The notes: generated by a model not told the origin, from the letters alone. A stretch of DNA of 64,000 bases from an uncultured Planctomycetota bacterium (GCA_963737655.1 CAVTTN010000002.1:3008001-3072000); one strand, 5' to 3'; counted from the stretch's first letter, positions 1 through 42,723 are shown. Numbers and translations: made by a program.

Positions 1-3
1 GCG

Positions 4-2820: not shown

Positions 2821-2980
2821 GCCGGGGGCATGCGTGGCCGGAGACGCGATCGTCTCCGCGATCTCGATTTTTCTCTGGCTTTCTCCCGATTGAGCAGGTC
2901 TATTTCATAACCTCCTGATGAGGGAGGCGTTTTCTCCATTTCGACCGTGAAAGCCCCGCCGAGTGAGGCCCGCCCCCGTG

Positions 2981-21099: not shown

Positions 21100-22296
21100 A
21101 TGATTGGCCTCGATCGCCGCCGCCGGGCGGGCCTCCTGGCCCCGGCCCTCGTCGTCCTGACCATGGCCGGGGCCCGGAGCGAGGAGGGCCGCTGGGTCGG
21201 CACCTGGACGGCGGCCCCTCAGTTGACCGAGCCCGCCAACCTGCCCCCCGATCCCGGGCTCGCCGATTCCACCCTCCGCCAGGTCGTCCGCGTCTCCCTG
21301 GGGGGCAAGCGGCTCCGCGTCCGATTCTCCAATGCTTTCGGCACCAAGCCGTTGACGATCCTCTCGGCCCTGGCGTCCAGGTCCGCCGGAAGCGGCGCGA
21401 TCGTTCCGGACGGCGGCAAGCCCCTGACGTTCGCCGGGAAGGCCGCGGTCACCATCCCGATCGGGGCGCCGACGGTCTCCGACCCGATCGACTTCGACCT
21501 CGCCCCCCTCTCCGACCTCGTGGTCACGATCCGGGTCCAGGACCCGACCCGGACGATCACCGGACACCCCGGGGCCCGGTGCACGTCCTATCTGGTTCGC
21601 GGAGACCGGGTCACCGATCCCACCATGCCCGACGCGGCCCGGACCCCGCACTGGTACTACCTCTCCGGCGTCGATGTGGAAGCCGGGGACGCCTCCGCCG
21701 TGGTCGTGATCGGAGACTCGCTCACCGACGGTCGGGGCTCGCCGACCGACGGCAACGGCCGATGGACGGACCACCTCGCTCGTCGTCTCCACGACCGCGG
21801 AGGGGCCGGCGTCGGGGTCTTGAACCAGGGTCTGGGCGGCAATCGGGTGTTGAATGACGGCCTCGGGCCCAACGTTTTGGCGAGGCTGGACCGCGACGTC
21901 CTGGCCCAGCCCGGGGTCCGCTGGCTGATCGTCCTGGAGGGGATCAACGATCTTGGCACTCGCTCGGCGACCGCACGCGACCTGATCGCCGCCTATGATC
22001 AGATCCTCGTGCGATCGCACGACCGGGGCATCCGGGTGTACGGGGCGACGATCCCACCGTGCGAGGGTTCGTCCTACTTCTCGCCCGAGCTGGAGGCGGC
22101 CCGCCGGGAGGTCAACGCCTGGATTCGCGACTCCGGCCGCTTCGACGCCGTGATCGACTTCGACGCCGCGACCCGCGATCCCCGCAAGCCCGCGAGCCTC
22201 TCGCCCCAGGCGGACGGCGGCGACCACCTGCACCCGGGCCCGGAAGGTTACAGGATCATGGCGGAATCCGTCGATCTCAGGCTCTTCGAAAAGTGA
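21100..22296 (+). CDS. Secreted SGNH/GDSL hydrolase
   Basis: GDSLTDG, NQGLGGNR, LEGINDL, DHLHP blocks; TLRQVVRVSLGG N-terminal domain. Confidence 0.9.
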   Translation: MIGLDRRRRAGLLAPALVVLTMAGARSEEGRWVGTWTAAPQLTEPANLPPDPGLADSTLRQVVRVSLGGKRLRVRFSNAFGTKPLTILSALASRSAGSGAIVPDGGKPLTFAGKAAVTIPIGAPTVSDPIDFDLAPLSDLVVTIRVQDPTRTITGHPGARCTSYLVRGDRVTDPTMPDAARTPHWYYLSGVDVEAGDASAVVVIGDSLTDGRGSPTDGNGRWTDHLARRLHDRGGAGVGVLNQGLGGNRVLNDGLGPNVLARLDRDVLAQPGVRWLIVLEGINDLGTRSATARDLIAAYDQILVRSHDRGIRVYGATIPPCEGSSYFSPELEAARREVNAWIRDSGRFDAVIDFDAATRDPRKPASLSPQADGGDHLHPGPEGYRIMAESVDLRLFEK

Positions 22297-22319
22297 TCCG
22301 GAAGCGTCGGTTGAGGGGT

Positions 22320-23309
22320 TCAGGGTCCGTGGGGATCGCGCCCGGACGTGCATTCGATCAGGAGTTCGCGGAAGCGCTCGCCGGACGGCGAAAGGTCTCG
22401 CCCCTCCCGGCCGATGGCCCGTCGGCAGATTAAATGGAGCCGGATCGGCCGAAATTGCTCGGCCCGGAGCGGACGGGACCACAGGCCGGGTCCGAACCGC
22501 TCGCCGGCCGATCTCGGGACGACCCCGACCCCCAGCCCCTCGGCCACGAACGCCAGGATGGCCGACCAGCCGCCCACCTCGATCGCGATCTTCAGCCCAT
22601 CGGTCACCCCGGCCGCGTCCAGGTCGCGGTCAATCTGCCCCCGGACGGCGGAATCCGGCTCGGGGAGGACCAGGGGGATAGTCCGGAGGGCCTCGGCCGG
22701 CACGGGCCCTTCGGGGAGGGCGCGAAGCGCGTCAGCCCAGTCTTCACCCGCTTTGAGGCTGGCGACGAGGACGAGCGGATCATCGCGGAGATGATCGACG
22801 TGCAAGGATCGGCGGGCGATGGCGCGAATCTCGGCCTCGTCGTGGGTCACGGTGGCCAGGTCGAGCAGCCCGCTGGCCACCCCCTCGATCCGTGATCGCC
22901 CCCTCGTCGTGGAAATCCTCGCCTGGACCTCCGGCTTCTCGCGACGGAGGCGTCGCAGGGCCTCCAGGGCGTAGGTCGCCGCGCCCTCCTGACCGCAGGC
23001 GAACGCGAACTCGGCCTCGCCGCGAGTCCCAGCGGAGAATCGCCCCAGGGCCCGGTAGCGCCGAACCAGCTCGTGGACCGAGGGGAACATCCGCCGCCCC
23101 TCCTCGGTCATCCCCCACGTCTTGCCGTCTCGTTCCAGCCAGGGCGAAGCCACGGACGGACCCGGCCCCTGCAACTGCGACATCCTCTTGGACATGCTCG
23201 GCTGATTGATCCCCAGCCGAGCCGCCGCCTTCGAGGCGTCCCCGCCCTCCTCGATCAGCGTGACGAACGTTTCCAGCAGCTCGAAGCTCAGACTCGGCGA
23301 TCGTGGCAT
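22320..23309 (-). CDS. LysR-family transcriptional regulator
   Basis: LETFVTL..ASKAAARLGINQPSMSKRMSQL HTH; LDLA, AFVAEGLGVGVVP substrate-binding region. Confidence 0.88.
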   Translation of the reverse strand: MPRSPSLSFELLETFVTLIEEGGDASKAAARLGINQPSMSKRMSQLQGPGPSVASPWLERDGKTWGMTEEGRRMFPSVHELVRRYRALGRFSAGTRGEAEFAFACGQEGAATYALEALRRLRREKPEVQARISTTRGRSRIEGVASGLLDLATVTHDEAEIRAIARRSLHVDHLRDDPLVLVASLKAGEDWADALRALPEGPVPAEALRTIPLVLPEPDSAVRGQIDRDLDAAGVTDGLKIAIEVGGWSAILAFVAEGLGVGVVPRSAGERFGPGLWSRPLRAEQFRPIRLHLICRRAIGREGRDLSPSGERFRELLIECTSGRDPHGP

Positions 23310-23340
23310 GGCGTTAAGCCCCCCGCCATCCGCGGAATTC

Positions 23341-23382
23341 ATTCTTTTTTTTCCAATATCTGGCCGTTCATCGCGTATAGCT
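23341..23382. promoter_or_regulatory. Candidate LysR box (ATT-N11-AAT) and -10-like TATAGC in the divergent intergenic region
   Basis: ATTctttttttttccAAT at 23341-23357 fits T-N11-A; AT-rich island between LysR and the Nudix genes. Confidence 0.4.
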
Positions 23383-23462
23383 TAAGGAGTAGAGAGGGAT
23401 CAGGCAAGGGTGAGGCCCGGAGCCATCGCCCGACTGGCCCGTTCCTGGGGAGGGTTCCTGAG

Positions 23463-23945
23463 ATGACGATGCCCACGTTCCCCGAAGTCCGCGTGGCGGC
23501 GGTGGCGATCACCCGAGGCGACGAGTTCCTGACGACCTTCAACGGCCGGTGGGGCGGGTTCACCTTGCCGATGAGCAAGAGGCGGACCTGGAGCGACCCG
23601 CAGGTGCCGGGGTCGGAGCGGCACGAGGAAGCCGGCGACGCCGCCATCCGCGCCTCGGCCGAGGCCCTGGGCCGGCCCCTCGGGCCCGACGACCGGCTGG
23701 AGAGGCTGGAACTGATGGAGCTCGAACCGTACCACCAGTCCAACCGCGACGGGGCCTGGAAGAGCTACCGCTTCGAGGTCTTCCGGCTCCGGTTGGCGGC
23801 CGATACCCGGCCCTCGGTCGCGCCCGGGGCGATCTTCGCCTGGCTGTCGCTCGACGCGATGAGGGAGTCTCGGCCGGTCTCGCCCACGGCGATCCGGCTC
23901 GCCGAGGCGATCCGAGGGGCCGCGGTGCTCCGGGGCGAGGTCTGA
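23463..23945 (+). CDS. Nudix-fold protein with degenerate Nudix box
   Basis: VAAVAITRGDEFL...WGGFTLP...EEAGDAAIRASAEALG; the REUXEE motif is not intact. Confidence 0.6.
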   Translation: MTMPTFPEVRVAAVAITRGDEFLTTFNGRWGGFTLPMSKRRTWSDPQVPGSERHEEAGDAAIRASAEALGRPLGPDDRLERLELMELEPYHQSNRDGAWKSYRFEVFRLRLAADTRPSVAPGAIFAWLSLDAMRESRPVSPTAIRLAEAIRGAAVLRGEV

Positions 23946-23984
23946 GCGTCGAATCCACCTCTCCGGGACATCGGGTGACACGTC

Positions 23985-24437
23985 ATGAGAACGTCCGAAG
24001 CCGCCCTGGCCGCGATCCGAAACCGGCCGGGCGGCGAAACCTTGTGGCTGGCCCGCTGGAACGAGGCGTGGGGCGCGTTCCACTTCGTCGGCGGCCACCG
24101 CCTCGACGGCGAATCGTTCCGCGACTGCCTGACCCGCGAGCTGTTCGAGGAACTCGGGCTGAGCGAGGGGGCCGATTTCACGGTCGGGACCGCGCCGCCG
24201 GTTCGGTTCGATTACGTCGGCTGGTCGCGCCGGGCCCAGGCCGAGACCCGCTATCGGATCGAGATGTTCCCCGTCGATCTCCGCGAGCCCGACGGCCGGG
24301 CGATCGCGAGTCGGACGATGACTCGCTGGCTCGATCGTGAGACAATGGACCGAGGCCGATGCGTCGATGGCCTGCCCGTCAGCCCGACGATGGGACTCCT
24401 GATCGCCAAGGCCAAATGGACCGAGACGGCCCCCTGA
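23985..24437 (+). CDS. Nudix hydrolase
   Basis: Canonical box G-HRLDG-E-SFRDCLT-RELFEELGL. Confidence 0.88.
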   Translation: MRTSEAALAAIRNRPGGETLWLARWNEAWGAFHFVGGHRLDGESFRDCLTRELFEELGLSEGADFTVGTAPPVRFDYVGWSRRAQAETRYRIEMFPVDLREPDGRAIASRTMTRWLDRETMDRGRCVDGLPVSPTMGLLIAKAKWTETAP

Positions 24438-24453
24438 CGAGGAGCCCGCGACG

Positions 24454-27400
24454 ATGTTCGACGACGACCGACCGCCGATCCTCCACGACCTCTTCGTGAG
24501 TTACGCCCACATCGACGACCAGGGCGAGAACGCCGGCCACGTCTCGGCCCTCGTCTCCGCCATCGAGGCCGATTACCGACGCTTCGCCGGCTCGCCGTTG
24601 CGCGTGTTTTTCGATCGCGACGAGATCCGGGCGATGGACGACTGGGAAGGCCGGATCTTGACGGGCTTGCGGCACTCCAAGATGATGGTGGCGATCCTTT
24701 CGCCCTCCTATTTCGCCAGCGCCTATTGCCGGAAGGAATGGGAATACTACGTCGAGACCGAGCTGGCCCATGCCTTACCCGGCGATGGGATCGCGCCGAT
24801 TTATATTCTGACTCACCCGAGCTTCGATGCCGATCCGGTCGAGGAAACGCTCCGCCGCTGGGTCCACGACCTTCGGAAGCGGCAGTACATCGACTGGAAG
24901 GACTTCTGGCCCCACGGCTACAGGGCCCTGGAGCGGGAGGACGTCCGCCGGAGGCTGGACCACCTTCCCGGCCAGATCGCCGAGCGGTTGAAACGGTCGA
25001 AGATCCGTCAAGAAAGCCCTCACACCGTCCCCCTGCCGAGCGAGCATTTCGTCGGCCGTCGCGACGAGATGCAGACGCTTCGGCACGACCTGATCCGCCG
25101 TCAAATCGGCGCGATCACGGCCCTCCACGGCATCGCGGGCATTGGCAAGAGCATGCTGGCGTTCGCGTATGCGTGGGGCTACGGCTACGAGTATCCCGGG
25201 GGCCGGTTCCTGATCCAGGCGGCGAACCTGGGAGACCTCGCCTCGGGCGTGATCGCCCTGGCCGAGCGGAAGGGCGTGACGCTCTCCGAGGCCGAGCTGC
25301 GAAGTCCCGATTTGGCTCTCGATCGGGTCAAGAAGGCGTTCGAGGAAGGCCCGGCGGCGCTGATCGTGATCGACAACGTGGACGATCCGGCCTTGCTGGA
25401 CGTCCAGGCGCGGGAGCGGGCGTTGCCCCGGGGGGATCATATCCACGTCCTGGTGACGACTCGCGTATCACCGGAAAACCTGCCTCGCATCCATTGCCTG
25501 CCGCTCGACTCCCTCGAACCGCAGGACGCCCTGAGCCTCCTGAACGAGTTCCGCCCGATCGCCGACTCGCCCCAGGACGACGAATGGAAGGCCGCCCTGG
25601 AGATCGTCCGCCGCCTCGACGGCCACGCTCTGGCCCTGGAGGTGGTGGCGGTCTCGCTCCGCGAGCATCCCGAGGTGTCCTATCGCGAGATGGCCCGGTC
25701 TCTGGAAGAAAACGGCATCTCGCTCCTGGAGGAAGACCTCGGCCCGAGGCGAGGGGCAAGCTCACCTGGCACCGCGAAACCTGCATCGGCAAGCTGCTCG
25801 AACCGACCTGGAATTCGCTCTCGGACGAGGAGAGGAGGGCCGTCGAATACGCCGCGATGCTGCCGCCCGACAACGTGCCGCTCCCCTGGCTCCGCGAACT
25901 GCTCCTCAAGGACTTCCCCACGCTCGCCCAGAGCCGGATCGGCGACCCGATCGCCCGCCTCTTCCAGAAGCTCGAACGCCTCCGCCTGATCGTCGCCACC
26001 GGCCGAGATCGCCAGGACCAACCCCAACCCTCCACCGCCCCCACCCAAACCCGAATTGCCCGGATGCACCGGCTCGTCGGCGACGTGATCCGCCGACAAC
26101 TGGGGAGGGTTGAGGAAACGGCGCGGGAAGAGGTGGTCCACAAGTTCGCCTACGGCCGGGCCGAATGGATCAAGGCGAACTGGGGCAAGGCTGGCCTGGG
26201 CTGGGAAGTGCCGCCTTTGCGTGAGGTGACCCTCGGTCTGATCGACCGAGTCGAGTATCGCGGCGTTTACATGGGAGATTGCATCTCAACGGCATTACTC
26301 CACAGCGGAAGGATGTTCGAGGCCATCTCGCTCTGTCGTCGATCTTCGGAGGCCCTGAAAAAGCTTCTTGATGCAGAACCCGAAAGCAATTTTTACTCCC
26401 GTGAACTGTCAGTGACCTACAACAAGCTGGGCGACCTGGCGCGTTCGTCGGGCGACGCGGCCGGGGCGCGTCGGTACTACGAGGACGGCCTGGCGATCCG
26501 GCGGCGGCTGTCCGACGGCGCGCCCGAGAGCGCCGACTACGCCCGCGACCTGTCGGTCAGCTACAACAAGCTGGGCGACCTGGCGGTGTCGTCGGGCGAC
26601 GCGGCCGGGGCGCGTCGGTACTACGAGGACGGCCTGGCGATCCGGCGGCGTCTGTCGGAGGGCGCGCCCGAGAGCGCCGACTACGCCCGCGACCTGTCGA
26701 TCAGCTACGATCGGCTGGGCGACCTGGCGCGTTCGTCGGGCGACGCGGCCGGGGCGCGGCGGTACTACGAGGACGGCCTGGCGATCCGGCGGCGGCTGTC
26801 CGACGGCGCGCCCGAGAGCGCCGACTACGCCCGCGACCTGTCGGTCAGCTACAACAGGCTGGGCGACCTGGCGCGTTCGTCGGGCGACGCGGCCGGGGCG
26901 CGGCGGTACTACGAGGACGACCTGGCGATCGCGCGGCGGCTGTCCGACGGCGCGCCCGAGAGCGCCGACTACGCCCGCGACCTGTCGGTCAGCTACGATC
27001 GGCTGGGCGACCTGGCGCGTTCGTCGGGCGACGCGGCCGGGGCGCGGCGGTACTACGAGGACGGCCTGGCGATCCGGCGGCGGCTGTCCGACGGCGCGCC
27101 CGAGAGCGCCGACTACGCCCGCGACCTGTCGGTCAGCTACGATCGGCTGGGCGACCTGGCGCGTTCGTCGGGCGACGCGGCCGGGGCGCGGCGGTACTAC
27201 GAGGACGGCCTGGCGATCCGGCGGCGTCTGTCGGAGGGCGCTCCCGAGAGCGCCGACTACGCCCGCGACCTGTCGATCAGCTACAGCAAGCTGGGCGACC
27301 TGGCGCGTTCGTCGGGCGACGCGGCCGGGGCGCGGCGGTACTACGAGGACGGCCTGGCGATCGCTCGGCGTCTGTCGGAGGGCGCTCCCGAGAGCGCCGA

Positions 27401-27887
27401 CTACGCCCGCGACCTGTCGATCAGCTACAACAAGCTGGGCGACCTGGCGCGTTCGTCGGGCGACGCGGCCGGGGCGCGGCGGTACTACGAGGACGGCCTG
27501 GCGATCCGGCGGCGGCTGTCCGACGGCGCGCCCGAGAGCGCCGACTACGCCCGCGACCTGTCGGTCAGCTACAACAGGCTGGGCGACCTGGCGCGTTCGT
27601 CGGGCGACGCGGCCGGGGCGCGGCGGTACTACGAGGACGACCTGGCGATCGCGCGGCGGCTGTCTGACGGCGCGCCCGAGAGCGCCGAGTACGCCCGCGA
27701 CCTGTGGGTTTCCTACAGCAAGATGGCCCTTCTTGCCGAGAATGCCGGGGATTCGGCCGGGGCGCTGGCCTGGTGGCGGCGGGTTTGGGAGACGTTGACC
27801 GACATGAAACGGCGGGGGATGCACATCTCGCCCGGGGATGAGGCTTATCGACAGGGCTTGGAGGATCGCTTCGGATTTGGCCGGTGA
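24454..27887 (+). CDS. TIR - NB-ARC (STAND) - TPR NLR-like protein (frameshift near 25745)
   Basis: TIR LFVSYAH..VFFDR..ILSPSYFASAYCRKEW; FVGR, Walker A GIAGIGKS, Walker B LIVIDNVD, LVTTR, GHALAL, MHRLV; 48-aa TPR array. Confidence 0.9.
26394..27689 (+). repeat. Nine tandem 144-bp (48-aa) TPR units
   Basis: Unit YARDLS[VI]SY[NDS][KR]LGDLARSSGDAAGARRYYED[GD]LAI[RA]RRLS[DE]GAPESAD, in register from 26394 to 27689. Confidence 0.97.
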
Positions 27888-28086
27888 GGGATCGTTCTGA
27901 GCGTGCCCGGAGGGGGTAGGACGGAGCGGTCCCGTCGTTTCCTGGTGGGATGGCATCTCAGTCGGGCAGGCCCTGGCCTGCCTGGCCTTGCGACGACGGC
28001 AGGCCGGGGACTGCTTGGCGGGAAATGGCTGAGTCCCGGCCGATTTTGGACGGTTGATGCGTTATGTTCTCCGGGGAGTTCCGACC

Positions 28087-29564
28087 ATGCCGGTCTTCTG
28101 GACGATCCGGGCTCAGCGGCACTTGCGGCAGGCGTTGGCCGAGGAGCTGGGGCGCGAATTTGCCCCGGCGAGGCCGGTTTCCTCGGCGGGTGAGGTGGGA
28201 GGGAGTTGCCCTGGGGTCCTGGAGGGGCGGATGAGGCACCTCAATGCCATGCTGGCCGAGGCGTTCGGCCAGGCGACCGTCGTGGTCAAGGACCAGGTGA
28301 TCGGCTATCGCCGCAAGAAGGATCGATTCACCCTGATGGTGGACGTTTTCGACCCCAAAACCGCCGCGCCCCTCGGCTCGTTCGTCGTCAAGATCGGCCC
28401 CGAGGACGAGATTCGCGAAGAGGTCCGGGGCTGGGACTGCTGCCGGCCCCCCGGATTGCGGCATGACCTGGTTCTGCTCACGCTCGAACCGAGGGAACCC
28501 GTCGATCATGAAGGCCGGTCGTGGATGTGCCTCGTGTACGGCGACGCCCAGCAGTTCCTCGGGGTGGCCGAGACCCGCCCGTTCGAAGACGTGATGCTCG
28601 AATGCGTCCGCGACGGCGTGCCCAAGCTGCTGTCGATCCATGTCGTGATCGGCGAGCTTTACGACCGGATCGGCCACTTGCTCTATGGTCAAGCCTTCAT
28701 CGACAACCCCGCCCACGCCGACTACGTTCTGGATGTCCCCCGGCTCGACGACGGGCTGAAGGCGTGGGAGGTCGATCCGGCCTGCCAGGCCGCCCGCCGA
28801 GACGCGAGCGTGGTCCAGGGAAAAGTTCCCTATCTCGACCCGGTCGATTACCTCCGCTACGTGCAGAAGTATTCGGCCCATCGCGACGGCCGGGGAAACG
28901 TCGTCCCCCGCGCCAGCCCGATGCCCCGAAGCCGGGCGATTTACCGGCCCCGTTCCCGGTCCCGAGGGTCGTCGATGTCGTGCCGAGGATGCTTCGCGGT
29001 TGCGCTCATGGCGACCTCCACGGCCGGAATATCCTGGTGGGGATCGTCCGCGACCAGGCGATGTGGCCGACGGTGTTCGACTACGAAGACATGGGGCCGC
29101 GGAACCTGATCGGCTGGGACTTCGTGAAGTTGGAGACCGAGATGAAGGTCCGGGCCTATCCCGACGTCTTCCGGGGCAAGGAGCCGATCCCGTTCGCCCA
29201 GGCGATCCGCGAGTTCGAGGCCGACCTGGACGCCCGGACCGAGACATGCCACCTGACCCGCTCGTGGCCCGAGCCGGATGACCCGACCCTGGCCGCCGAT
29301 CGATTAAGGTCGATCCTCCTCGCGATCCGCCGGATGGCCTCGCAGCACCTGGGGATGATCCACGGGCGCCCGAACGACTGGCTGGAAGAGTACTATTTCC
29401 TCCTGGTCTGCTACGGGGTGATCACCGCGAGGTTCGAGAACCTCCAGCATCGCGAACGGATCGGGGCCCTGATCTCGGCCGGGGTGGCGGCGGCCCGATT
29501 GAGCTGGCCCCGGGCCGTCGAGCTGGCCGAACTCAAGCTCCCGCCGCCGACCGACCCCGAATGA
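28087..29564 (+). CDS. APH/phosphotransferase-fold kinase, TCAD9-like (frameshift near 28908)
   Basis: FVVKIG..EIREE, HGDLHGRNILV, VFDYEDM, WDFVKLETE; GGGGAG RBS. Confidence 0.75.
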
Positions 29565-29618
29565 GGCCGTCGAAAACCGCGAAGGGCCACGGCGGCCCGT
29601 CGGACCCGAGGAGTCCTG

Positions 29619-30446
29619 GTGATGAATGCGAATAACCCGCCCTGGATCGATGCCGTCCTCCGGGCCCCCTTCCCCAGCTACCGCGCCCCGATGGCGCTGG
29701 CCGGCGAGCTCGGCCGATCGGGCCGGGCCGACTCCCGCGCCCAGGCCATCACGCTCTTGAAGGCGCTCGCCGAGCGATATCCCTATGCCCTGGCGATCCG
29801 CCAGGAGCTCGTCTTCGTGATGATGGAGGCGAACGAGGACGTCGAGCTGATCCTCCACCGGCTCGAACGGGAATTCGCCAACCTCGATGAGGAGACCCTG
29901 TGCCGCTGGGGCCGCCTCTTCAAGGAGAAGGGCGATGGCCTGGCCCGGACGCTCCAGCCGGACCAGGCGGAACGATACTACCGGAAGTCCCTGGAAAAGT
30001 ACGATCGAGCCTATCGGATCCGCGACGGCCATTACCCGGCGATCAACAAGGCGACGCTCCTCCTGATCGTCGGGTCGCTCCGGCCGTTATCGCCCGGGGC
30101 ATCCGAGCCTTCGGAGTGCCTCGAATCGGCAAAGCTGGCGGAGAAGATCCTCACGAGTCGCGGTTCCTGGCGGGCCGAGCTCCCGGCCGATGAGGCGATC
30201 TGGTTCCCCGCGACCGAGGCGGAGGCCCACCTGCTCCGCCGGGAATGGGCCGAGGCGGCAGTCCTCTATCGCCATGTCCTGGACCAGGATGCGCTGAATC
30301 CGCACTCGCGGGCGACCATGCATCGCCAGGTCGAGCGAATCCTAAGCTGCTTCCGCAACCTGAACGTCCCGCCGGCGCCCCCGTTCGACGACCCCGGGAC
30401 GTTATTCGGGGCCGAGGCCGGTCTGGACCCGTTGGCCTCCTCGTGA
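29619..30446 (+). CDS. TPR-S / MAP3K TRAFs-binding (DUF4071)-like TPR protein
   Basis: EETLCRWGRLFKE..YDRAY..HYPAINKATLLL..WFPATEAEAHLL..AAVLY pattern. Confidence 0.72.
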   Translation: MMNANNPPWIDAVLRAPFPSYRAPMALAGELGRSGRADSRAQAITLLKALAERYPYALAIRQELVFVMMEANEDVELILHRLEREFANLDEETLCRWGRLFKEKGDGLARTLQPDQAERYYRKSLEKYDRAYRIRDGHYPAINKATLLLIVGSLRPLSPGASEPSECLESAKLAEKILTSRGSWRAELPADEAIWFPATEAEAHLLRREWAEAAVLYRHVLDQDALNPHSRATMHRQVERILSCFRNLNVPPAPPFDDPGTLFGAEAGLDPLASS

Positions 30447-30471
30447 ATCCTCTGGGATACAGGATCTGCTC

Positions 30472-30765
30472 ATGTCGTATCGTCCTCAGCCCATCGATAC
30501 CTCGAAGACCGAGCTGCCCGATTCGCTCGTCGCCCTGACGGAGCGGCTGGCGGAGAACACGCACGACGTCTGGGCCGCGCATCGACTGTCCGAGGGCTGG
30601 TCGCTCGGTCCTCGTCGCGACGACGCCTCGAAGACCCATCCGTGCCTGGTCCCGTACGCCGATCTGCCCGAGTCCGAGAAGCAGTATGACCGTCAGACGG
30701 CGATCGAGACGCTCAAGGCGGTGCTCGTCCTGGGCTATGCGATCGTCCCGAGGCTGGAGGATTGA
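30472..30765 (+). CDS. Standalone RyR (ryanodine receptor repeat) domain protein
   Basis: YRPQPIDTS..L..LTERLAENTHDVWA..R..EGW..G..RDD..KTHPCLVPYADLPESEKQYDR..A.ETLK..GY.I. Confidence 0.93.
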   Translation: MSYRPQPIDTSKTELPDSLVALTERLAENTHDVWAAHRLSEGWSLGPRRDDASKTHPCLVPYADLPESEKQYDRQTAIETLKAVLVLGYAIVPRLED

Positions 30766-32613
30766 TCGATGACCGAGACGACGGCGGCCCCGGGCCCCGG
30801 AGGTGGCCCCACGCGATCGATTACCACTTCGCGAACCTCCTCCGAAGGCTGGGCGGGGCGTGGTTCCCGTCGCTCGTCGCCCTGGCGATCCTCGCGCTGG
30901 CCCTGGGCTGCTGGGGCTACCACGAATTCGCCGTTCAGAACCGGAAGGTGCCCTCGGCCACGATCACGCTCTACCGGTCCTTGCAACTCTTCGCCCTGGA
31001 AATGCCCGAGACGGAGACCGAATACCCGCTGGCCCTGGACGTGGCCCGGTTCCTCGCGGCGTTCGTCTCGTTCTCGGCGGTCCTGGGCGTCCTGGGGACG
31101 ATCTTCGAGGCCAGGGTCCAGGCCGCCCGGCTCTGGGTCCTGGGGAGGCATCACGTGGTCCTCTGCGGCCTGGGCGAGAAGGGGGCCGAGCTCGTCCAGG
31201 TCCTCAGGAAGGACCGGCATTTCGTCGTGGTCATCGAGCCGGACGCGACTCACGAAGACCTGTCGAGATGCCGGGCCCTTGGGGCCGTCGTCCTGACCGG
31301 CAACCCGACCGACTCCTGGCGTCTCAAGAAGGCGAGGGTCCATCGGGCCGACGTGCTGATGGCGATCGTCCCGGGAGACGACCGGCTGAACGTCGAGACG
31401 GCGATTCTCGCCCATGCGATCTGCCGGAGCCCTCGCCATGGAACGCTGACGTGCGTCCTCCAGGTCTCCGACCCGGACCTCACCACGGTGGTCCGCAAGC
31501 ACCCGATGGCGACCGAAGGGGGCGACGGCTTCGACCTCCAGCCGTTCCGCATCGACGATGCCTGCGCCCAGGCCATGCTCCGCGAGGCCCTGGTCGGCGG
31601 CCGGGCGCAAGTCCCGGGCGGATCCTGGTCGTCGGCATCGGTCCGGGAGCCAGGATGGGCGAGAGGCTGATCCTCAGGGCCGCCAAGGACTGGCACCTGG
31701 AGAATCCCGACGGGCCGAAGCTGCAGATCGACGTCCTGAGCCCCGGGGCGACCGTCGAGACGGAGAGGATGCGGACCTCGTACCCGCCTCTGGACCTCGC
31801 CTGCGAGCTCCGACCCCACGACGTGGCCCCGGAGCCGCTCTCATTCGTCGAGACGTTGGATCGAATCCACGGGGCCCGCTCCTCGTCGCGGCGTTCGTTG
31901 GCCTGGACGACGAGGGCGCCGCCCTGATTGCCGCGGACCGGCTCCGCGATGCCCTGCCCAAACTCGTCCCGGTCATCGTCCGGACGATCGAGAGGGATGC
32001 CGGCCTCGGCGCCCTGATCCGGGAACGAGGCGCCGAGGGGCTGATCGCCGTCGGCTCCAAGGACCGCGCGTTTCATCTCGCCGCGTCGCTCCGGCCGGTC
32101 CAGGAACTTCTCGCGCAAGCCGTCCACCACGAGTACCACCGCCACCAGGGCGGCCCGTCGAGCCCCTCCGGGAGCTGAGAAACCGGCCGTTCGCTTCTGG
32201 GAAGACCTCGACGAGGACTATCGCGAAGCCAGTCGAGCCCAGGCGCGCGACATCGCCCGGAAGCTCGGCCTGATCGGTCTCCGCGCCGTCACGTCTCCCG
32301 AGGGTTTTTTCCCCCTCCATCAGTTTCGGGAGGACGAGATCGAACGCCTCGCTCGAGATGAGCACGATCGCTGGTGCCAGGAGCGGAGGAGCCGGGGCTG
32401 GACCTACGGCGAAATTCGCGACAACCGAAAGAAGCTCCACCCCAACCTGCTCCCCTGGGACGATCCCCGCATCACCGAGCCCGTGAAGGAGATCGACCGC
32501 AACGCGATCCGTCGCCTCCCGGCGATCCTCGCCCGAGCGGATTACCAGATCGTGCGGATCGGCCCCGCGCCCGGCCCGACGAGCCTGGGGCGTTCGAGTC
32601 TCGGGAGAAATGA
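30762..32613 (+). CDS. Membrane channel-like protein: TM / pore-like helix / TM, TrkA-N (RCK) domains, C-terminal RyR domain (frameshifts near 31612, 31872, 32165 and probably 32570)
   Basis: TM helices flanking LYRSLQLFALE; HVVLCGLGEKG..VVVIE; RILVVGIG..MGERL; frame read by hand WEDLDEDYREASRAQA..EIERLARDEHDRWCQERRSRGWTYGEIRDNRKKLHPNLLPWDD; 3' end uncertain. Confidence 0.78.
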
Positions 32614-32638
32614 GATCGGTTTGGTGGGGTTGCATCGA

Positions 32639-33910
32639 TCACCCGCCTCGCGTCAGGTCGAGAAAGACGATCGAGGAAGGATTTCCGACCGGTGTATAGC
32701 TCCCGGTGAATTTCAGGTGGCCGGTTGTGCGATCCACGAGAAAACTCGTGATGTTGTCTCCTCTCTGATTGCAGCAGAAGAGGAATCGTCCGGACGGATC
32801 GAACGAGAAGCTCCGCGGATAATCGCCCCGGGTCCATTCCTCGCCGGCGAATGTCAACTCGCCGTCGGGGCCGATGGAGAAGAAGGAAATGCTGTCATGG
32901 AGCCGATTCCCCGCGTACACGAATCGTCCGTCGGGGGAGACCAGGACCTCCGAGCAGAAGTTACTGCCCTGGAAGCCCGGGGGGAGGCTGGAGATCGTCC
33001 GCCGATGCGTGAGGCGCCCCGTCGCGGCCTCGAAATCGAAGAGGGCGATGGTCGAGGCTTCCTCCTGGATCGAATAGAACCAACGGCCGTTGGGGTGAAA
33101 GTGAAAATGTCTGGGCCCGTCGCCGGGAGGGAGGGTCACCTGGGGCGTTCCCGCCGGTTTCAGGAGGCCGGCTCGCTCGTCGAACCTCCAGACGAAGAGA
33201 CGGTCGAGCCCCAGGTCCGCATGGATCGCGAAACGGCCGGAGGGGTCGGCCTGGATCATGTGAGCGTGCGTTCGGTCGTGGCCGCTGAACGCGAAGCTGC
33301 CCGGCGGGGCCCCCGACGCTCGCGCGGGGCCGATCTCGCCGACATCGTGCTTGACGTCGGTGGGATCGCCCAGGCGGCCGTCGGGCCGGACGGGCAAAAC
33401 GGCGACGGAGCCGCCGAAATAGTTCGCCACGAGGACGAACCGACCCGAGGAGTGGACGGACACGTAAGTTGGGCCGGCGCCCCCGGAGCGAACCGAGTTG
33501 AGCGGCGTCAAGCGGCCATTCACCCGATCGATGGCGAAGGCTCCGACCGTGCCCTCCGCATCGTCGCCAACCCGATCGGTCTCATTGGCCGAATAGAGGC
33601 GCGTCCCCTCGGGATTCAGGGCGAGGCAGCTTGGGCTGGTGCCCATCTCGAGGACGCCGGAGGCCGTCATCGCCCCGGTTGAACGATCGACCCGAAAGAG
33701 ATGGATGCCGCGTCCGTTGCCGGGGGGCAGGTCCACCTGGGTCCGGGGAACGTCTCGGAGAGGCGAGCTGAAGGTTCCGACGTAGGCGACCCACGGCGGA
33801 CCGTTCTCGTCCGCTCCGGCGGGGAGCCCGGGATCGACCAGCGGGGCCGTCGCCGCCAGCGCGGTGGAGGCCCGAAGAAACGAGCGACGCGACCGGTCCG
33901 ATGAAGTCAT
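32639..33910 (-). CDS. Tat-exported lactonase (6-phosphogluconolactonase / cycloisomerase 2 family)
   Basis: SRRSFL; YVGT, VLVANYFGGSV, HAHMI, PGDGPRHFHFHP, YPRSF. Confidence 0.9.
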   Translation of the reverse strand: MTSSDRSRRSFLRASTALAATAPLVDPGLPAGADENGPPWVAYVGTFSSPLRDVPRTQVDLPPGNGRGIHLFRVDRSTGAMTASGVLEMGTSPSCLALNPEGTRLYSANETDRVGDDAEGTVGAFAIDRVNGRLTPLNSVRSGGAGPTYVSVHSSGRFVLVANYFGGSVAVLPVRPDGRLGDPTDVKHDVGEIGPARASGAPPGSFAFSGHDRTHAHMIQADPSGRFAIHADLGLDRLFVWRFDERAGLLKPAGTPQVTLPPGDGPRHFHFHPNGRWFYSIQEEASTIALFDFEAATGRLTHRRTISSLPPGFQGSNFCSEVLVSPDGRFVYAGNRLHDSISFFSIGPDGELTFAGEEWTRGDYPRSFSFDPSGRFLFCCNQRGDNITSFLVDRTTGHLKFTGSYTPVGNPSSIVFLDLTRGG

Positions 33911-36963: not shown

Positions 36964-37562
36964 CGGCGTCTTCCCTCATCCAAGAGGGACGGTCCGTCTC
37001 CGGGTCAGCCCTCGTTCGTCGCGAGGAGAGATCCTGACCTTGAGGCGGAGCGTCTGGGGATGTCAAGTAGGGCGTGGGGCGATCGGCCCGGGGTGATCGA
37101 CTCAGCGAGAACCTTGTTCAGGACGAACCGCCCCAGGGGGGTAGGGAATCGGCTTCGATGTCCCATGCAAGTAGGGCAAATTATCGTCCCGCAGCAACAT
37201 GAATGCAAGAGGGCGGCGGACCCGATTCCCGCGGAGGGTACAGTGCCGATCCCCGCTCGACTCGCCGCAAACCGGGGATGGGCCGTGGGGGGCTTTCCCG
37301 GCGCCGGCCTCCCTTCCATGAGTGGCTCCGCCCGACGAGAAAAGGAACAGTCCCCGGAGAACGAGCGGGCCGGGTCATGCAGAATCGGGCCGATCCTGAT
37401 ACAGTCGTGGAGAGAAGGGCCGAGGCTCGCCCGGCCGCGAAGGGTTCACGGATAACCCCCCGGACGAGATCCGTCGGCTCGGCCGGGCACTGCGGAGTCC
37501 TGCCGCCGTCCGCTCGGGCCGTGTCGTGTCGTCGGGAAACCGACTCGGGGAGGCCGCTGCAG

Positions 37563-40421
37563 ATGATCGGGAATCCCAGGCCGATGCGCTATGCGGTCGC
37601 CACTCTTGCCGTGGCGCTGGCGATCGGCCCGTTGTTCCTGCCGGGTCTCGGGCAGGGTATGGGGGGTGTCTTGCTGTTCGGCGTCCTGATCGCCGCCTGG
37701 TACGGTGGGCTGGGCCCGGGGATCTGGGCCAGCCTCCTGGTCCCGGCGATCCTCGTCGCGTTCTTCCGTGCGGCCGGCGTGACGATCCCGACCTGGCAGA
37801 TCTGGTCCTTCGGCATCTTCGTGGCCCTGGGCGGGCTGATCTCGGTGATTTTCGAGTCCCTCCATGCGGCCCAGAGGCGGTCCGAGGCGAACCGAAGGTG
37901 GCTCTCGGCGGTCCTGACCAGCATCGGCGACGCCGTGATCGCCACCGATCGCCGAGGGGCCGTCGTCTTCATGAACCCGGTCGCCCAGGCCCTGACCGGC
38001 TGGGACCCGGAGGAGGCGTCCGGCCGCCCTCTGCCCGAGGTCTTCCGACTCCTGTCCGAGGACACCAAGGAACCCGTCGAGGACCCGGTCGGGCGCGTCC
38101 TCCGCGACGGCGCGATCGTGGGCCTCGGCAACCATGCCCTCCTGATCGGCCGGGACGGATCGGAACATCCGGTCGCCGATCGGGCGGCGCCGATCCGAGG
38201 CGCCTCGACCGACATCTCGGGCGCCGTCCTCGTCTTCCGCGACGTGGCGGAGCAGAAGCAGGCCGAACGGCGAGTCGCCCTCCTGGCCGAGGCCGGGCGT
38301 CTCCTGGGCTCCTCCCTGGAAGAAGAGACGATCCTGCGGAGCGTGCACGATCTCGTCGTCGCGACCTTCGCGGACCGCTGCGCCCTGACGATCCAGGACG
38401 AGCGAGGTGCCCTCCGTCACCTGGCCGACACTCCAGGCGATTCCCACGAGCCGAAGTCGTGCCGCGATCTCTCCTGGCAGGCTCCCCCGGCCGAGGCCGA
38501 CGACCTGGGCTTGCGGCAAGTCCTCCTGGGCGGCGAGCCGGTCTTGCTCGCGGATTCTTCCGAGTTGGCCCCGGGCCAGTCGAGGCCGAGGATCGCGCCC
38601 GCCGGAGGTTCCGTCCTGATCCTCCCCATAAACGCCCGGGGCCGGACGATTGGGGCCATGACGCTCCTCAACAACCGCCCTTCCCGACCATTCGAGAAGG
38701 AAGACCTGCGGGTCGCCCTGGACCTGGCGTCCCGGATCGGCCTGGCCATCGAGAACGCCCGGCTTTTCTCGGAACGTGAGCAAGCGGCACGGAAGCGGGA
38801 GGAAGCCCTGTCCCTCCACCGGAGCGTGGAGGAGCAATTGACCGTGCTCGTCGAGGCCTCGGGCAGCCTGAGCGCCTCGCTCGACCCGCCCTCGGTCCTC
38901 TCCGCGGTCCTCGCCCTGTCGCGGAGGCTGATCGACTCGGACGCCCACGCGATCTGGCGACAGGATACCGCGACGGGCTCCTGGGGGATCGGCCACAGCT
39001 CGGGCCTTTCCGAGGAGTATCGCGAATCGACGATCCGCAGGCTCCGGGACGTGGCCAGGATGCCCGAAGTCCCGATCGTCGCCGATGACGTCATGGATGT
39101 TCCCCTGCTCGGGGCTCGGGAGCACGCGTACCGCAAGGAGGGGATCTGTTCCCTGCTCGCCGTCCCCTTGAGGGTCCGGGACCGGAACAGCGGGACCCTG
39201 GTGTTCTATTACCGAACGCCTCATCGCTTCACGGAGGTTGAAGTCCGGGTGGCCACGGCGCTCTCGAACATCTCGGCCGCCGCGATCGGGACGTCGGAGC
39301 TTTACGAGGAGCTGAAGGACCATGATCGCCGCAAGGACGAGTTCCTCGCGATGCTGGCCCACGAGCTCCGAAATCCTCTGGCCGCGGTGAGCAACGCGGT
39401 CTCCGTCCTCCGGAGCCCCGGCGACACCGAGGGCCGCGCCTGGGCGAGCGAGGTCATCGCCCGGCAGGTTCGGCATCTCACCCGATTGATCGACGACTTG
39501 CTGGACGTGTCGCGGATCACTCGGGGCAAGATCCGCCTCCGCCGGGGTTTCGTCGATGCCTCGTCGATCCTCGATCAGGCCGTGGAGACCGTCCGTCCCC
39601 TGATGGAGGAACGGATGCACTCGCTGCTGATCTCGATCGAGAGGGGGCGCTCCCGCTCTGGGTCGATTCGGCCAGGCTCGAACAGATCGTCGTCAACCTG
39701 CTGACCAATGCGGCGAAATACACCGATTCCGGAGGGCGAATCTGGCTGATCGCCGGACGAGAAGGCGAGCACGTGGCCATCACCGTCCGCGACACGGGCA
39801 TCGGCATCCCTCCGGAAAAGCTCCCCGAAATGTTCCAGCTTTTCGCGCAGGGGGAGCGCTCCATCGCTCGCTCGGAGGGAGGGGCTCGGGATCGGCCTGA
39901 CGGTCGTGCAGATGCTCGCCGAAATGCACGGGGGGAGCGTCTCGGCGACGAGCCGAGGACCGGGCGAGGGAAGCGAGTTTACCGTCCGGCTGCCGATCGC
40001 CCGGGAGGCGGAATCGGAGAGTTCGGAGGCCCCGAGCCCGCCGAACCGATCGGGTCGGTGTTCGCGGATCCTGGTCGTCGATGACAGCATCGACACGGCC
40101 CGGGGCATGGTCCGCCTCCTCAAGCTCCTCGGGCACGAGGTCGCGGTGGCCCACGACGGCCCCTCGGCCGTCGAGTTGGCCCGAGGGTTCGGCCCCGCGT
40201 TCATCCTTCTCGATATCGGCCTACCCGGGATGAATGGATACGAGGTGGCCGAGACGCTTCGACGCGACCCCGGCTCGAAGGACGCCATCATCATCGGAGT
40301 CTCGGGCTATGGCCGGGATGAGGACCGTCGGCGATCGGAGGCCGCCGGCTTCAATCACCACCTGGTCAAGCCGGTCGATTTCGACGCGCTCGTCTCGCTC
40401 CTGGCCGCGAGCATCGGCTAG
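37563..40421 (+). CDS. Hybrid sensor histidine kinase: TM sensor, PAS, two GAF, HisKA, HATPase, receiver (frameshifts near 39645 and 39880)
   Basis: SIGDAVIATD..MNPVAQALTGW; FLAMLAHELRNPL; NLLTNAAKYT, DTGIGI; ILVVDD..LDIGLPGMNGYEVA..KPVD; start uncertain. Confidence 0.9.
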
Positions 40422-42466: not shown

Positions 42467-42723
42467 TTACAGCCATCTTGTGATGAATTCACAAGAGCGG
42501 AACGAAGTGTTCGAAACCGATCGGGGAAGATCGGTGGGGCGGCGGGGCATGGTGGCCCCTGGATGGGCATCCCTCGCGATCGTCGGGGTCGGGGTGTAGG
42601 CCGTCGGTCGAGCCAGCCGGAATCAGGCGCGGGTGTCGCGCTTGGGTCGCTTGCGCGCGCTGCCAGGGCTGTTTGACCAGGCCGGGGCGAAGTCGCTGAT
42701 CTCTCTACATTGAGGTGCTACCA

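Follow-up and report, generated by a model that had tools for sequence, protein, structure and literature searches.

The 64,000-nucleotide stretch of DNA analyzed here (the window), from an uncultured Planctomycetota bacterium, contains a putative operon of seven co-oriented genes and a divergently transcribed gene for a LysR-family regulator, and ORF calls and Pfam searches bore out the gene positions and domains claimed for it in an earlier note (Table 1). The intergenic gaps from NudA through the RyR gene measure, in order, 39, 16, 166, 54, and 25 nt, and the stop codon of the RyR gene overlaps the TTG start codon of the channel gene by 4 nt. The whole 7.63-Mb genome has just two TIR_2 and two RyR matches, of which one TIR_2 match and both RyR matches fall in the operon, so this grouping exceeds chance expectation. 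The operon is flanked by ordinary planctomycete and housekeeping genes; the defence-island setting considered in the earlier note was not found among the flanking genes examined. Genes for YcaO and radical SAM proteins are located at window positions 2951-5918, approximately 17 kb from the operon.

Table 1. Genes and other features of the operon region (window coordinates)
Feature	Position	Strand	Evidence and remarks
LysR-family regulator	22320..23342	-	Pfam LysR_substrate 4e-26, HTH_1 1.4e-7; divergent from operon
LysR-NudA intergenic region	23343-23462		120 nt
NudA	23463..23945	+	no Pfam match; Nudix-fold paralogue of NudB (alignment)
NudB	23985..24437	+	Pfam NUDIX 4.4e-9
TIR-NB-ARC-TPR protein (NLR-like), ~1,140 aa	24454..27887	+	Pfam TIR_2 1.7e-14, NB-ARC 1.2e-6, TPR_10/12 8.4e-47
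TPR repeat array inside NLR gene	26394..27709	+	Tandem Repeats Finder
TCAD9 kinase, APH/sugar-kinase-like fold	28054..29564	+	Pfam TCAD9 on both halves
TPR-S protein	29619..30446	+	Pfam TPR-S 1.9e-11, 44.9 bits vs cut-off 27.6; MAP3K_TRAF_bd 1.7e-3
Stand-alone RyR (Repeat12-type) protein, 97 aa	30472..30765	+	Pfam RyR 2.3e-35
2TM-RCK-RCK-RyR channel-like membrane protein	30762..~32613	+	Pfam TrkA_N 4.4e-13, RyR 4.3e-13

The glutamate that the earlier note had pointed out as catalytic is present in the NLR-like protein, and so is a P-loop. The glutamate of the motif YCRKEW aligns, at weak E-values (0.13-0.18), with the glutamate of the CLxEL motif in the TIR domains of flax L6 and grapevine RUN1, which we take to be the catalytic residue of these two proteins, and the Walker A motif reads GIAGIGKS. 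The TPR array consists of 9.1 near-identical 144-nt (48-aa) repeats with 94% matches, 0% indels, and a score of 2280. The best NCBIfam similarities, to FxSxx_TPR (2.5e-25) and FxsC_Nterm (3.4e-12), both lie under the family cut-offs, and identity to the orthologue in locus L008 is 72% across a frameshift described below. A TIR domain fused to a STAND module is usually an NAD-depleting effector rather than a signal maker, which speaks against the signalling scheme favoured below.

The Nudix pair had been regarded as two hydrolases, which can be upheld only for NudB. Its Nudix box is canonical (GGHRLDGE...RELFEELGL), with REx2EE kept in nine of nine orthologues, suggesting an intact enzyme, whereas all five NudA sequences in the alignment have RAxxE at the place of REx2EE; with such a degenerate box NudA is probably a non-hydrolase. 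Orthologues of NudB occur fused to SLATT (L004), to TIR-NB-ARC-TPR (L017), to DUF4062-STAND-TPR (L018), or to TCAD9 (L012).

The stand-alone RyR protein matches the first repeat of animal RyR2 with 80.6 bits. Multiple alignment of 12 sequences showed no variation at H31, W34, and D73, and H56 is kept in nine of them; the spacing of these residues (+3, +25, +42) is the same as that of H75, W78, H100, and D117, by which the phage RyR-domain proteins RyDEP are reported to cleave or sequester 2'cADPR and 3'cADPR (PMC13232231). Another such protein, RyR Tad, is reported to bind 1''-3' gcADPR with a KD of 43 nM (bioRxiv 10.64898/2026.06.04.730250). The earlier proposal that the RyR domains read a TIR-made nucleotide thus has experimental backing, in so far as these two reports describe it, for phage homologues that share with the protein studied here the Pfam family PF02026, the four pocket residues at identical spacing, and a small single-repeat architecture; by analogy, a similar ligand may be bound here. 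In contrast to the phage proteins, those of the window are host-encoded and lie in a TIR-NLR operon, one copy forms the tail of a membrane RCK protein, and their expected role is sensing or self-regulation, not immune evasion. The RyR gene is not a phage-encoded anti-defence gene, as seen from its position in a chromosomal operon with ordinary bacterial flanks and from the conservation of the locus in bacterial genomes. SLOG-RyR fusions were seen in sister genomes, and an Atlas cluster of 122 proteins, in which TPR-S and RyR occur together, provides a lead only.

The next gene pair encodes a kinase of the TCAD9 family, whose name originates from the vWA-MoxR-VMAP ternary systems, and a TPR-S protein. 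The two halves of the kinase score 5.3e-4 and 4.8e-9, under the Pfam cut-off, solely because the gene is split; an intact orthologue reaches 68 bits (cut-off 40). All 11 aligned orthologues share K138, E148, the motif HGDLHxRN, and D378, and the best PDB matches of the structural model are N-acetylhexosamine 1-kinase, maltokinase, choline kinase, and methylthioribose kinase. A search with a profile of the TCAD9 C-terminal part yielded 17 related Planctomycetota loci, in each of which a TPR-S gene follows TCAD9, and the two are fused in L066, P0044, and P0046. The TPR-S protein is a predicted sensor of NAD-derived signals; the TPR domain of ThsI from type VIII Thoeris presumably belongs to the same Pfam family, TPR-S. 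Given that the kinase invariably occurs together with this predicted sensor, in some loci as a fusion, it is probably more than the threshold setter that had been supposed, and it looks like another output controlled by the signal or like an enzyme that processes ADPR.

The last gene of the operon is colinear, in four frame pieces, with an intact 612-aa orthologue in L012. The AF2 model of the latter (pLDDT 87.4) matches GsuK, TrkA, CASTOR, and MthK, and at the C-terminus repeat R12 of RyR3; Foldseek aligned it to GsuK with E 1e-8, including NAD- and ADP-bound entries, and the full chain with 3e-8 over 552 columns. The modeled fold, in which a 2TM pore-like module precedes two Rossmann-type RCK domains, agrees with the RCK-channel identity proposed earlier and resembles the RCK-gated K+ channels GsuK, MthK, and TrkA. 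It differs from them in the extra C-terminal RyR domain, in the TIR/STAND genomic context, and in the selectivity filter: no TVGYG-type sequence was found in the L012 protein or the family consensus, where the short helix leads into a loop with LQLFVL and then variable residues, and ion conduction is therefore not assured. In sister loci SLATT pores occupy the place of the channel. Among ten further channel loci only two have a TIR gene nearby, only one has the TCAD9/TPR-S/RyR core, and eight show no such link. Systems for comparison in animals are TRPM2/NUDT9-H, the SLOG-bearing TRPM channels, and cADPR-ryanodine receptor signalling, in which a membrane channel is likewise combined with sensor domains of ADPR type (RyR R12, degenerate Nudix); the proteins described here are bacterial, with an unrelated channel core and a putative ligand.

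The gene set is a recurring unit rather than a chance grouping, with a constant TCAD9-TPR-S pair to which variable partners are added: two Nudix proteins, a small RyR protein, LysR, TIR/STAND proteins, and either SLATT pores or the 2TM-RCK-RyR channel. A small RyR gene was found in nine, a Nudix gene in 11, and a LysR homologue in nine of the 17 loci; the 12 loci scanned with Pfam contain TIR in seven cases, SLATT/DUF4231 in four, and a class III cyclase in four. A 100%-complete genome from another family, G321, has genes for TIR, DUF4062-TPR, fused TCAD9-TPR-S (723 aa), RyR (102 aa), channel (675 aa), and nSTAND1-WD40 proteins, all intact and in the same order as in the window. The TIR-NLR gene had been counted as part of the set, which holds for the window and some loci but for only part of the family: no TIR gene was detected within approximately 10 kb of the core in L009, L010, L011, and L016, and the core can therefore occur with no TIR gene linked to it. 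Only L021 showed a small Nuc_deoxyrib_tr-like gene. The system is rare and patchy, the TCAD9 subfamily being present in five of 401 sampled Planctomycetota genomes and a TPR-S orthologue in two of 40 relatives, a distribution that is usual for defence genes.

The earlier claim of a new immune system is too strong, since a recent Thoeris survey reports experimental validation of TIR+SLATT (type VII), TIR+ThsI (type VIII, a TPR-domain enzyme), and TIR+ion channel (type X) combinations (bioRxiv 10.64898/2025.12.03.692087). According to this survey, ThsI joins a CMP-hydrolase to a TPR domain 'predicted by Aravind and colleagues', and its signal is canonical cADPR; Avs-type TIRs were removed, and 29 putative types are listed in a figure and Table S1, the word 'RyR' being absent from the main text. 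The operon shares with types VII, VIII, and X a TIR domain bearing the aligned glutamate and, encoded beside it, proteins that have domains presumed to bind the signal and outputs at the membrane or through an enzyme; the family of loci includes SLATT, a TPR-type sensor, and an effector resembling an ion channel. The RyR and TPR-S domains have, as judged from sequence, conserved ligand residues; binding is known only for the phage RyR homologues and, indirectly, for ThsI. Unlike the stand-alone TIR protein ThsB, the TIR domain here heads an NB-ARC-TPR protein encoded by one gene; the sensors include RyR domains, the TPR sensor is joined or fused to a TCAD9 kinase and not to a CMP-hydrolase, and the set adds two Nudix genes, a free RyR gene, and LysR.

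The TIR + NB-ARC + TPR architecture is also shared with TIR-STAND (Avs-like or bacterial NLR-like) proteins and, as described for them, with the TIR-AP-ATPase-TPR proteins of the FxSxx-type VMAP ternary systems (PMC7159879), from which the NLR studied here differs by its scores under the family cut-offs. Neither vWA, MoxR, or VMAP genes nor the FxSxx peptide-maturation gene set were recognized by Pfam next to the operon, and the 12 scanned loci likewise lack the former three, with the exception of one weak VWA_CoxE match (2.6e-4) in L007; with no vWA, MoxR AAA+, and VMAP genes among the Pfam matches of its neighbourhood, the operon does not conform to a ternary system of this kind. PADLOC, suggested earlier as a check, produced only weak single-gene matches on the operon, to PDC-S07 (3e-5) and PDC-S66 (4.3e-7), and no named Avs family model was matched, the NLR giving PDC-S66 with its TIR part and a generic TPR model.

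The scheme we favour, at roughly even confidence, is a Thoeris-like signalling pathway that the NLR triggers and that RyR and TPR-S sensors read, the channel and the kinase being its outputs and Nudix/RyR providing turnover. Its biochemical steps, the identity of the signal, and the antiviral function are predicted from the domains, conserved catalytic and ligand residues, channel and kinase folds, recurrence, and fusions. Activation would start with the TIR-NB-ARC-TPR protein, which would detect an invader through its TPR array or its STAND module and oligomerize; its TIR domain would then produce ADP-ribose or a cyclic isomer of ADPR from NAD+. The RyR (Repeat12) tail of the GsuK-like 2TM-RCK-RCK protein would read this nucleotide and open or disturb the membrane, and the TPR-S protein would serve as a second reader for the small-molecule-type kinase. 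The free RyR protein (a binder or a glycosidase) and the presumably active NudB may buffer and destroy the signal, thus providing a threshold and reset; NudA may bind without cleaving, and LysR would control expression. The interpretation given in the earlier note is supported in part: the gene set as a unit, the TIR residues, the RyR idea, the RCK fold, and NudB stand, whereas the role of the kinase, NudA, the ubiquity of TIR, and the novelty call for revision.

Compared with intact orthologues, the operon as assembled contains five clear frameshifts, and probably a sixth, in approximately 10 kb: one in the NLR gene (~25741-25745), one in TCAD9 (between 28887 and 28989), and three in the channel gene (31598-31604, 31825-31888, and 32148-32171), at the 3' end of which the matching frame continues without a stop until 33682, the stop at 32611-32613 being in another frame. 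If these breaks were real, none of the three large genes would be functional and the operon would be a dead relic in this genome, an unlikely reading that gains from the number of breaks and from their clustering in the operon, given that an 8.1-kb adhesin ORF (42700-50832), several 3-kb ORFs of the window, and rpoB are unbroken. However, breaks of this sort also affect rpoC, an essential gene that lies in two frames here, and a histidine kinase unrelated to the operon, which has two frameshifts, so most breaks in the operon are probably assembly indels. Against a relic also speak the completeness of only 87.74% for a three-contig assembly, G/C runs of 4-5 bases in or touching four of the five mapped break intervals, high similarity to orthologues in the frames on both sides of each break, and the intact state of the four short genes.

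We consider it rather improbable that two or three independent systems lie here side by side, namely an Avs-like NLR depleting NAD+ and a separate Nudix/TCAD9/TPR-S/RyR module, with or without the channel, that uses another nucleotide and could answer cNMP made by the cyclases of sister loci or the products of NAD+ breakdown in general. This reading gains from the well-known TIR-STAND proteins that act in defence on their own, from a gene order around the core that differs between loci, from the mostly solitary occurrence of the channel, and from the five of 12 Pfam-scanned loci without TIR/NLR, which have cyclases or CYTH (L009) instead. Nevertheless, NudB is fused to TIR-NLR and to DUF4062-STAND elsewhere and ends 16 nt ahead of the NLR start in the window, one of the two TIR genes of the genome accompanies both its RyR domains, and TIR, STAND, TCAD9-TPR-S, RyR, and channel reappear together in G321. 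A physiological circuit, in which NAD-derived nucleotides would regulate ion flux and metabolism under LysR control, for example in the stress or developmental response of a bacterium whose life cycle is complex, is very unlikely, even though LysR is not usually conserved with defence systems, ion homeostasis is the normal task of RCK channels, and the flanks are housekeeping genes. The near-identical repeats of the NLR, the patchy distribution, the association with STAND NTPases, SLATT pore-formers, and many TIR genes, and the modular swapping of partners are typical of conflict systems and count against such a circuit.

The operon is best read as a conflict system of Planctomycetota that comprises several genes, signals through TIR in the manner of Thoeris, and is most likely antiviral. 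Since this planctomycete gene set combines a TIR immune sensor of plant-like type with proteins bearing the ryanodine-receptor domain by which phages bind TIR-made cADPR, it probably represents a variant within an established type of antiviral signalling in bacteria.

Seven plus-strand genes of the ORF listing point away from a divergent LysR regulator, separated by gaps of 39, 16, 166, 54 and 25 nt and then by a 4-nt overlap; together with Pfam, the listing bore out every domain assignment of the earlier note. NudA, which has no Pfam match, aligns with NudB, and RAxxE stands in all five NudA sequences at the position of the catalytic REx2EE of all nine NudB sequences; NudA is therefore probably a Nudix fold without catalysis, as judged from the alignment. 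The TPR region of the TIR-NB-ARC-TPR protein (NLR) contains a 144-nt unit in 9.1 copies of 94% identity. A promoter/terminator scan of 22000-33200 yielded chance-level counts (1 vs. 0.5 and 4 vs. 4.2). The GC content of the window is ~69%, and the source genome comprises 7.63 Mb in 3 contigs with an estimated completeness of 87.74%; the operon holds one of its two TIR_2 matches and both of its RyR matches.

Genes of the operon (window coordinates) and of a second RyR architecture (locus coordinates)
Feature	Coordinates	Strand	Source
LysR regulator	22320-23342	minus	ORF listing + Pfam
NudA	23463-23945	plus	ORF listing
NudB	23985-24437	plus	ORF listing + Pfam
TIR-NB-ARC-TPR protein	24454-27887	plus	ORF listing + Pfam
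TCAD9 kinase	28054-29564	plus	ORF listing + Pfam
TPR-S protein	29619-30446	plus	ORF listing + Pfam
RyR-domain protein, 97 aa	30472-30765	plus	ORF listing + Pfam
Membrane TrkA_N...RyR protein (channel)	30762 to about 32613	plus	ORF listing + Pfam
RelA/SpoT-SLOG-RyR gene	L070:8376-11108		
RelA/SpoT-SLOG-RyR gene	L071:7479-10250		
RelA/SpoT-SLOG-RyR gene	L072:9894-13517		
RelA/SpoT-SLOG-RyR gene	L073:7062-9995		

The flanks carry no phage genes, and a prophage origin was rejected. In three genomes of the same genus, compared for an insertion site, the lactonase and the GDSL lipase that flank the operon are on separate short contigs. Elsewhere in the window, positions 1-5918 encode a protein that joins a Ser/Thr kinase to an FGE-sulfatase domain; next come a YcaO cyclodehydratase and a radical SAM enzyme of the B12-binding type, and the group may constitute a peptide-modification cluster. 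A single ORF of 2,711 aa (42700-50832), giant, adhesin-like and unbroken, contains 14 cadherin-like/Big_9 repeats and PATR repeats, and an FtsK/SpoIIIE-type P-loop ORF (63087-63998, minus strand) is truncated at the window edge.

Comparison with intact orthologues places one frameshift in the NLR gene (about 25741-25745), one in the TCAD9 gene (between 28887 and 28989) and three in the channel gene (31598-31604, 31825-31888 and 32148-32171). The matching frame of the channel is free of stops up to 33682 and crosses the convergent lactonase gene, which makes a sixth indel likely towards the 3' end of the channel gene. These breaks could reflect real decay, and their clustering in the operon, with the 8.1-kb adhesin ORF and several 3-kb ORFs of the window whole, counts against a purely technical cause. 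However, the essential rpoC gene (G000:C2:6635601-6639726, outside the window) is in two frames, split near 6639380, with rpoB intact, and a PAS-GAF hybrid histidine kinase/receiver gene (window 37203-40418) changes frame twice within ~250 nt, around 39650-39880; both are evidence of indel errors of the assembly outside the operon. Assembly error, perhaps caused by low coverage of an accessory region, is in our judgement the probable origin of the operon frameshifts, and decay a rather unlikely one.

A profile of the TCAD9 C-terminal region, scanned against one genome per species, detected 17 loci, all in Planctomycetota, whose neighbours were then scored by tblastn. The TPR-S gene follows TCAD9 at all 17 loci, NudA and/or NudB occur at 11, and the small RyR gene and a LysR homologue at nine each; of the eight loci without the small RyR gene, five are on contigs that measure less than 12 kb. 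With 5 of 401 sampled genomes carrying it, the TCAD9 subfamily is rare, and a TPR-S orthologue was found in 2 of 40 relatives. Among the 12 TCAD9 loci scanned with Pfam, TIR proteins (TIR-NB-ARC-TPR, TIR-nSTAND1-WD40, TIR-kinase and short TIRs) are present at seven, DUF4062-STAND at two, SLATT/DUF4231 two-TM effectors at four, and class III cyclases, some with TPR-S, at four; the channel gene is intact in L012 (612 aa) and fragmented in L007. A vWA-MoxR-VMAP ternary system was rejected, as no vWA, MoxR or VMAP gene was seen in these 12 loci. In L012, the best-conserved sister locus, the small RyR and channel genes are separated by a gene (L012:13206-15314) whose 702-aa product has a single TM segment and matches no Pfam family. 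In genome G007, the gene of an HSP90/HtpG-like paralogue of 782 aa (L004:7208-9556, minus strand) overlaps the TPR-S gene at its end and may be part of the operon at that locus.

Scanning 401 sampled genomes of the phylum with a channel profile gave full-length matches in about eight other genomes, and 10 matching loci were examined. The genome G321, which belongs to another family and is 100% complete, contains TIR, DUF4062-TPR, TCAD9-TPR-S fusion, RyR, channel and nSTAND1-WD40 genes, all intact, closely packed and in the same order as in the window. A 135-aa gene 5' of the G321 fusion was rejected as a Nudix gene (hhalign probability 0.3 against the Nudix alignment). In genome G402 the channel is flanked by a DUF4062-nSTAND1 giant and a TIR-FGE-TPR gene, in one of the 10 loci it adjoins a type I restriction system, and in one an AbiEii-like gene lies ~3.5 kb away; the remaining channel loci show no link. 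Two tandem 2TM-RCK-RyR copies occur in genome G396 (L061:8506-12338), with no TIR, TCAD9 or TPR-S gene nearby. The predicted structure of a channel orthologue (pLDDT 87.4) begins with two TM helices, the first of them long, between which lie a short helix and then a loop, and continues with two Rossmann domains and RyR; the model matches GsuK (NAD- and ADP-bound entries included), TrkA, CASTOR and MthK, and its tail matches the Repeat12 domain of RyR3. The GYG filter is absent from the channel.

The small RyR protein aligns with the first repeat of animal RyR2 at 80.6 bits, about half of the aligned residues being identical by eye. The cited passages on phage anti-Thoeris proteins report that phage RyR-domain proteins cleave 2'cADPR and 3'cADPR or, in the case of other homologues, sequester them with nanomolar affinity, the pocket comprising H75, W78, H100 and D117 (PMC13232231), and that RyR Tad binds 1''-3' gcADPR with a KD of 43 nM (bioRxiv 10.64898/2026.06.04.730250). 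The spacing of H31, W34, H56 and D73 in the small RyR protein is identical to that of the phage pocket. All 12 small-RyR and channel-RyR sequences keep the first His, the Trp and the Asp without change, and nine keep the second His. Four Planctomycetota genomes encode a second host RyR architecture, with a RelA/SpoT-like nucleotidyltransferase, in some cases TPR, a TRPM-type SLOG domain (LSDAT_prok, detected in two of the four proteins) and a C-terminal RyR; the L071 gene adjoins Nudix and patatin genes, and the L073 gene lies among TIR genes, one of them TIR-DUF4062-NACHT-TPR. An ESM Atlas cluster of 122 proteins of ~392 aa, most commonly from Acidobacteriota, combines TPR-S (100%) with RyR (90%), and a single open frame at L010:10551-12947 contains RyR, TPR-S and a cyclase.

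The kinase Lys and Glu, the HGDLHxRN loop and the Mg-binding Asp of TCAD9 are kept in all 11 orthologues. Its predicted structure (pLDDT 71.8) has small-molecule kinases as best matches, namely N-acetylhexosamine 1-kinase, maltokinase, choline kinase, 5-methylthioribose kinase and APH(3'), with E about 1e-4. Several of these kinases act on an anomeric sugar hydroxyl. TCAD9 is listed as a kinase-like family in a KINtaro-based preprint. Complex prediction for TCAD9 with TPR-S gave scores of 0.04, 0.42 and 0.00 (mark, 0.32), which count neither for nor against an interaction. Burroughs and Aravind reportedly assigned this TPR scaffold in 2020 to the sensing of NAD-derived signals and linked it to the TPR of ASK kinases, a kinship that fits the MAP3K_TRAF_bd co-matches in the window. 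The names TPR-S and TCAD9 are absent from the main text and two supplements of PMC7159879 and from PMC8195603, and a full-text literature search returned no paper joining TPR-S, TIR and Nudix.

Most economically, the operon would encode an NLR-triggered, Thoeris-like system. The TIR domain would yield ADPR or a cyclic isomer, the RyR and TPR-S domains would read it, and the outputs would be the TPR-S-coupled kinase and the channel-like membrane protein, for which sister loci have SLATT pores instead. Signal removal would fall to the free RyR protein and to NudB, NudB possibly also acting on linear ADPR. The main rival explanation is that the NLR and the Nudix/TCAD9/TPR-S/RyR core are neighbours and not partners: at 5 of 12 loci no TIR is linked to the core, and the channel stands alone in 8 of 10. 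Parts of the operon are tied together by fusions, of NudB with SLATT (L004), TIR-NLR (L017), DUF4062-STAND-TPR (L018) and TCAD9 (L012), and of TCAD9 with TPR-S (L066, P0044 and P0046).

Within the proposed Thoeris-like system, the TCAD9 kinase may instead, or also, process ADPR, which is worth considering given its nearest folds and the phage RyDEP in an NAD-rebuilding operon. We also propose, tentatively and with low confidence, that the bacterial RyR Repeat12 is a receiver of TIR-made cADPR gating a GsuK-like channel, and hence a prokaryotic precursor of the link by which cADPR and RyR release calcium in animals, with a built-in RyR/TCAD9/Nudix signal pathway. The free RyR protein would open the cyclic signal to ADPR, TPR-S-controlled TCAD9, modelled with a fold that most resembles those of anomeric-sugar kinases, methylthioribose kinase among them, would phosphorylate the freed ribose, and a Nudix enzyme would cleave the product; such a host pathway would mirror the phage arrangement of RyDEP with NARP1.

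The earlier statement that no named system has this gene set holds insofar as PADLOC and NCBIfam match none to the operon; however, TIR signalling, TPR-type sensors, SLATT/channel effectors and RyR as a cADPR binder are each already known or predicted. The cited parts of a Thoeris survey (bioRxiv 10.64898/2025.12.03.692087) define types I-XI, including type VII (TIR+SLATT, canonical cADPR) and type X (TIR+ion channel, signal unknown), remove Avs-type TIRs and do not contain the word 'RyR'; TIR-AP-ATPase-TPR proteins appear in the FxSxx-type systems of the cited part of PMC7159879. Host RyR-domain effectors and the TCAD9/TPR-S/Nudix set are not described in the cited passages of these papers, the 29 putative types of the survey aside.

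The operons of G321 (L066) and L012 are intact and usable as testable constructs. If the proposed system is real, it would add to bacterial TIR signalling a trigger of the NLR type, a kinase output linked to a TPR-S sensor, and host-encoded signal turnover by RyR and Nudix proteins, much as type III CRISPR has its ring nucleases. Bacteria would then possess in RyR a sensor of their own for TIR signals, connected to an ion-channel-like effector, and RyR would not be a phage counter-weapon only; this would bear on the long-running question of whether cADPR acts on the ryanodine receptors of animals and, if so, at which site.
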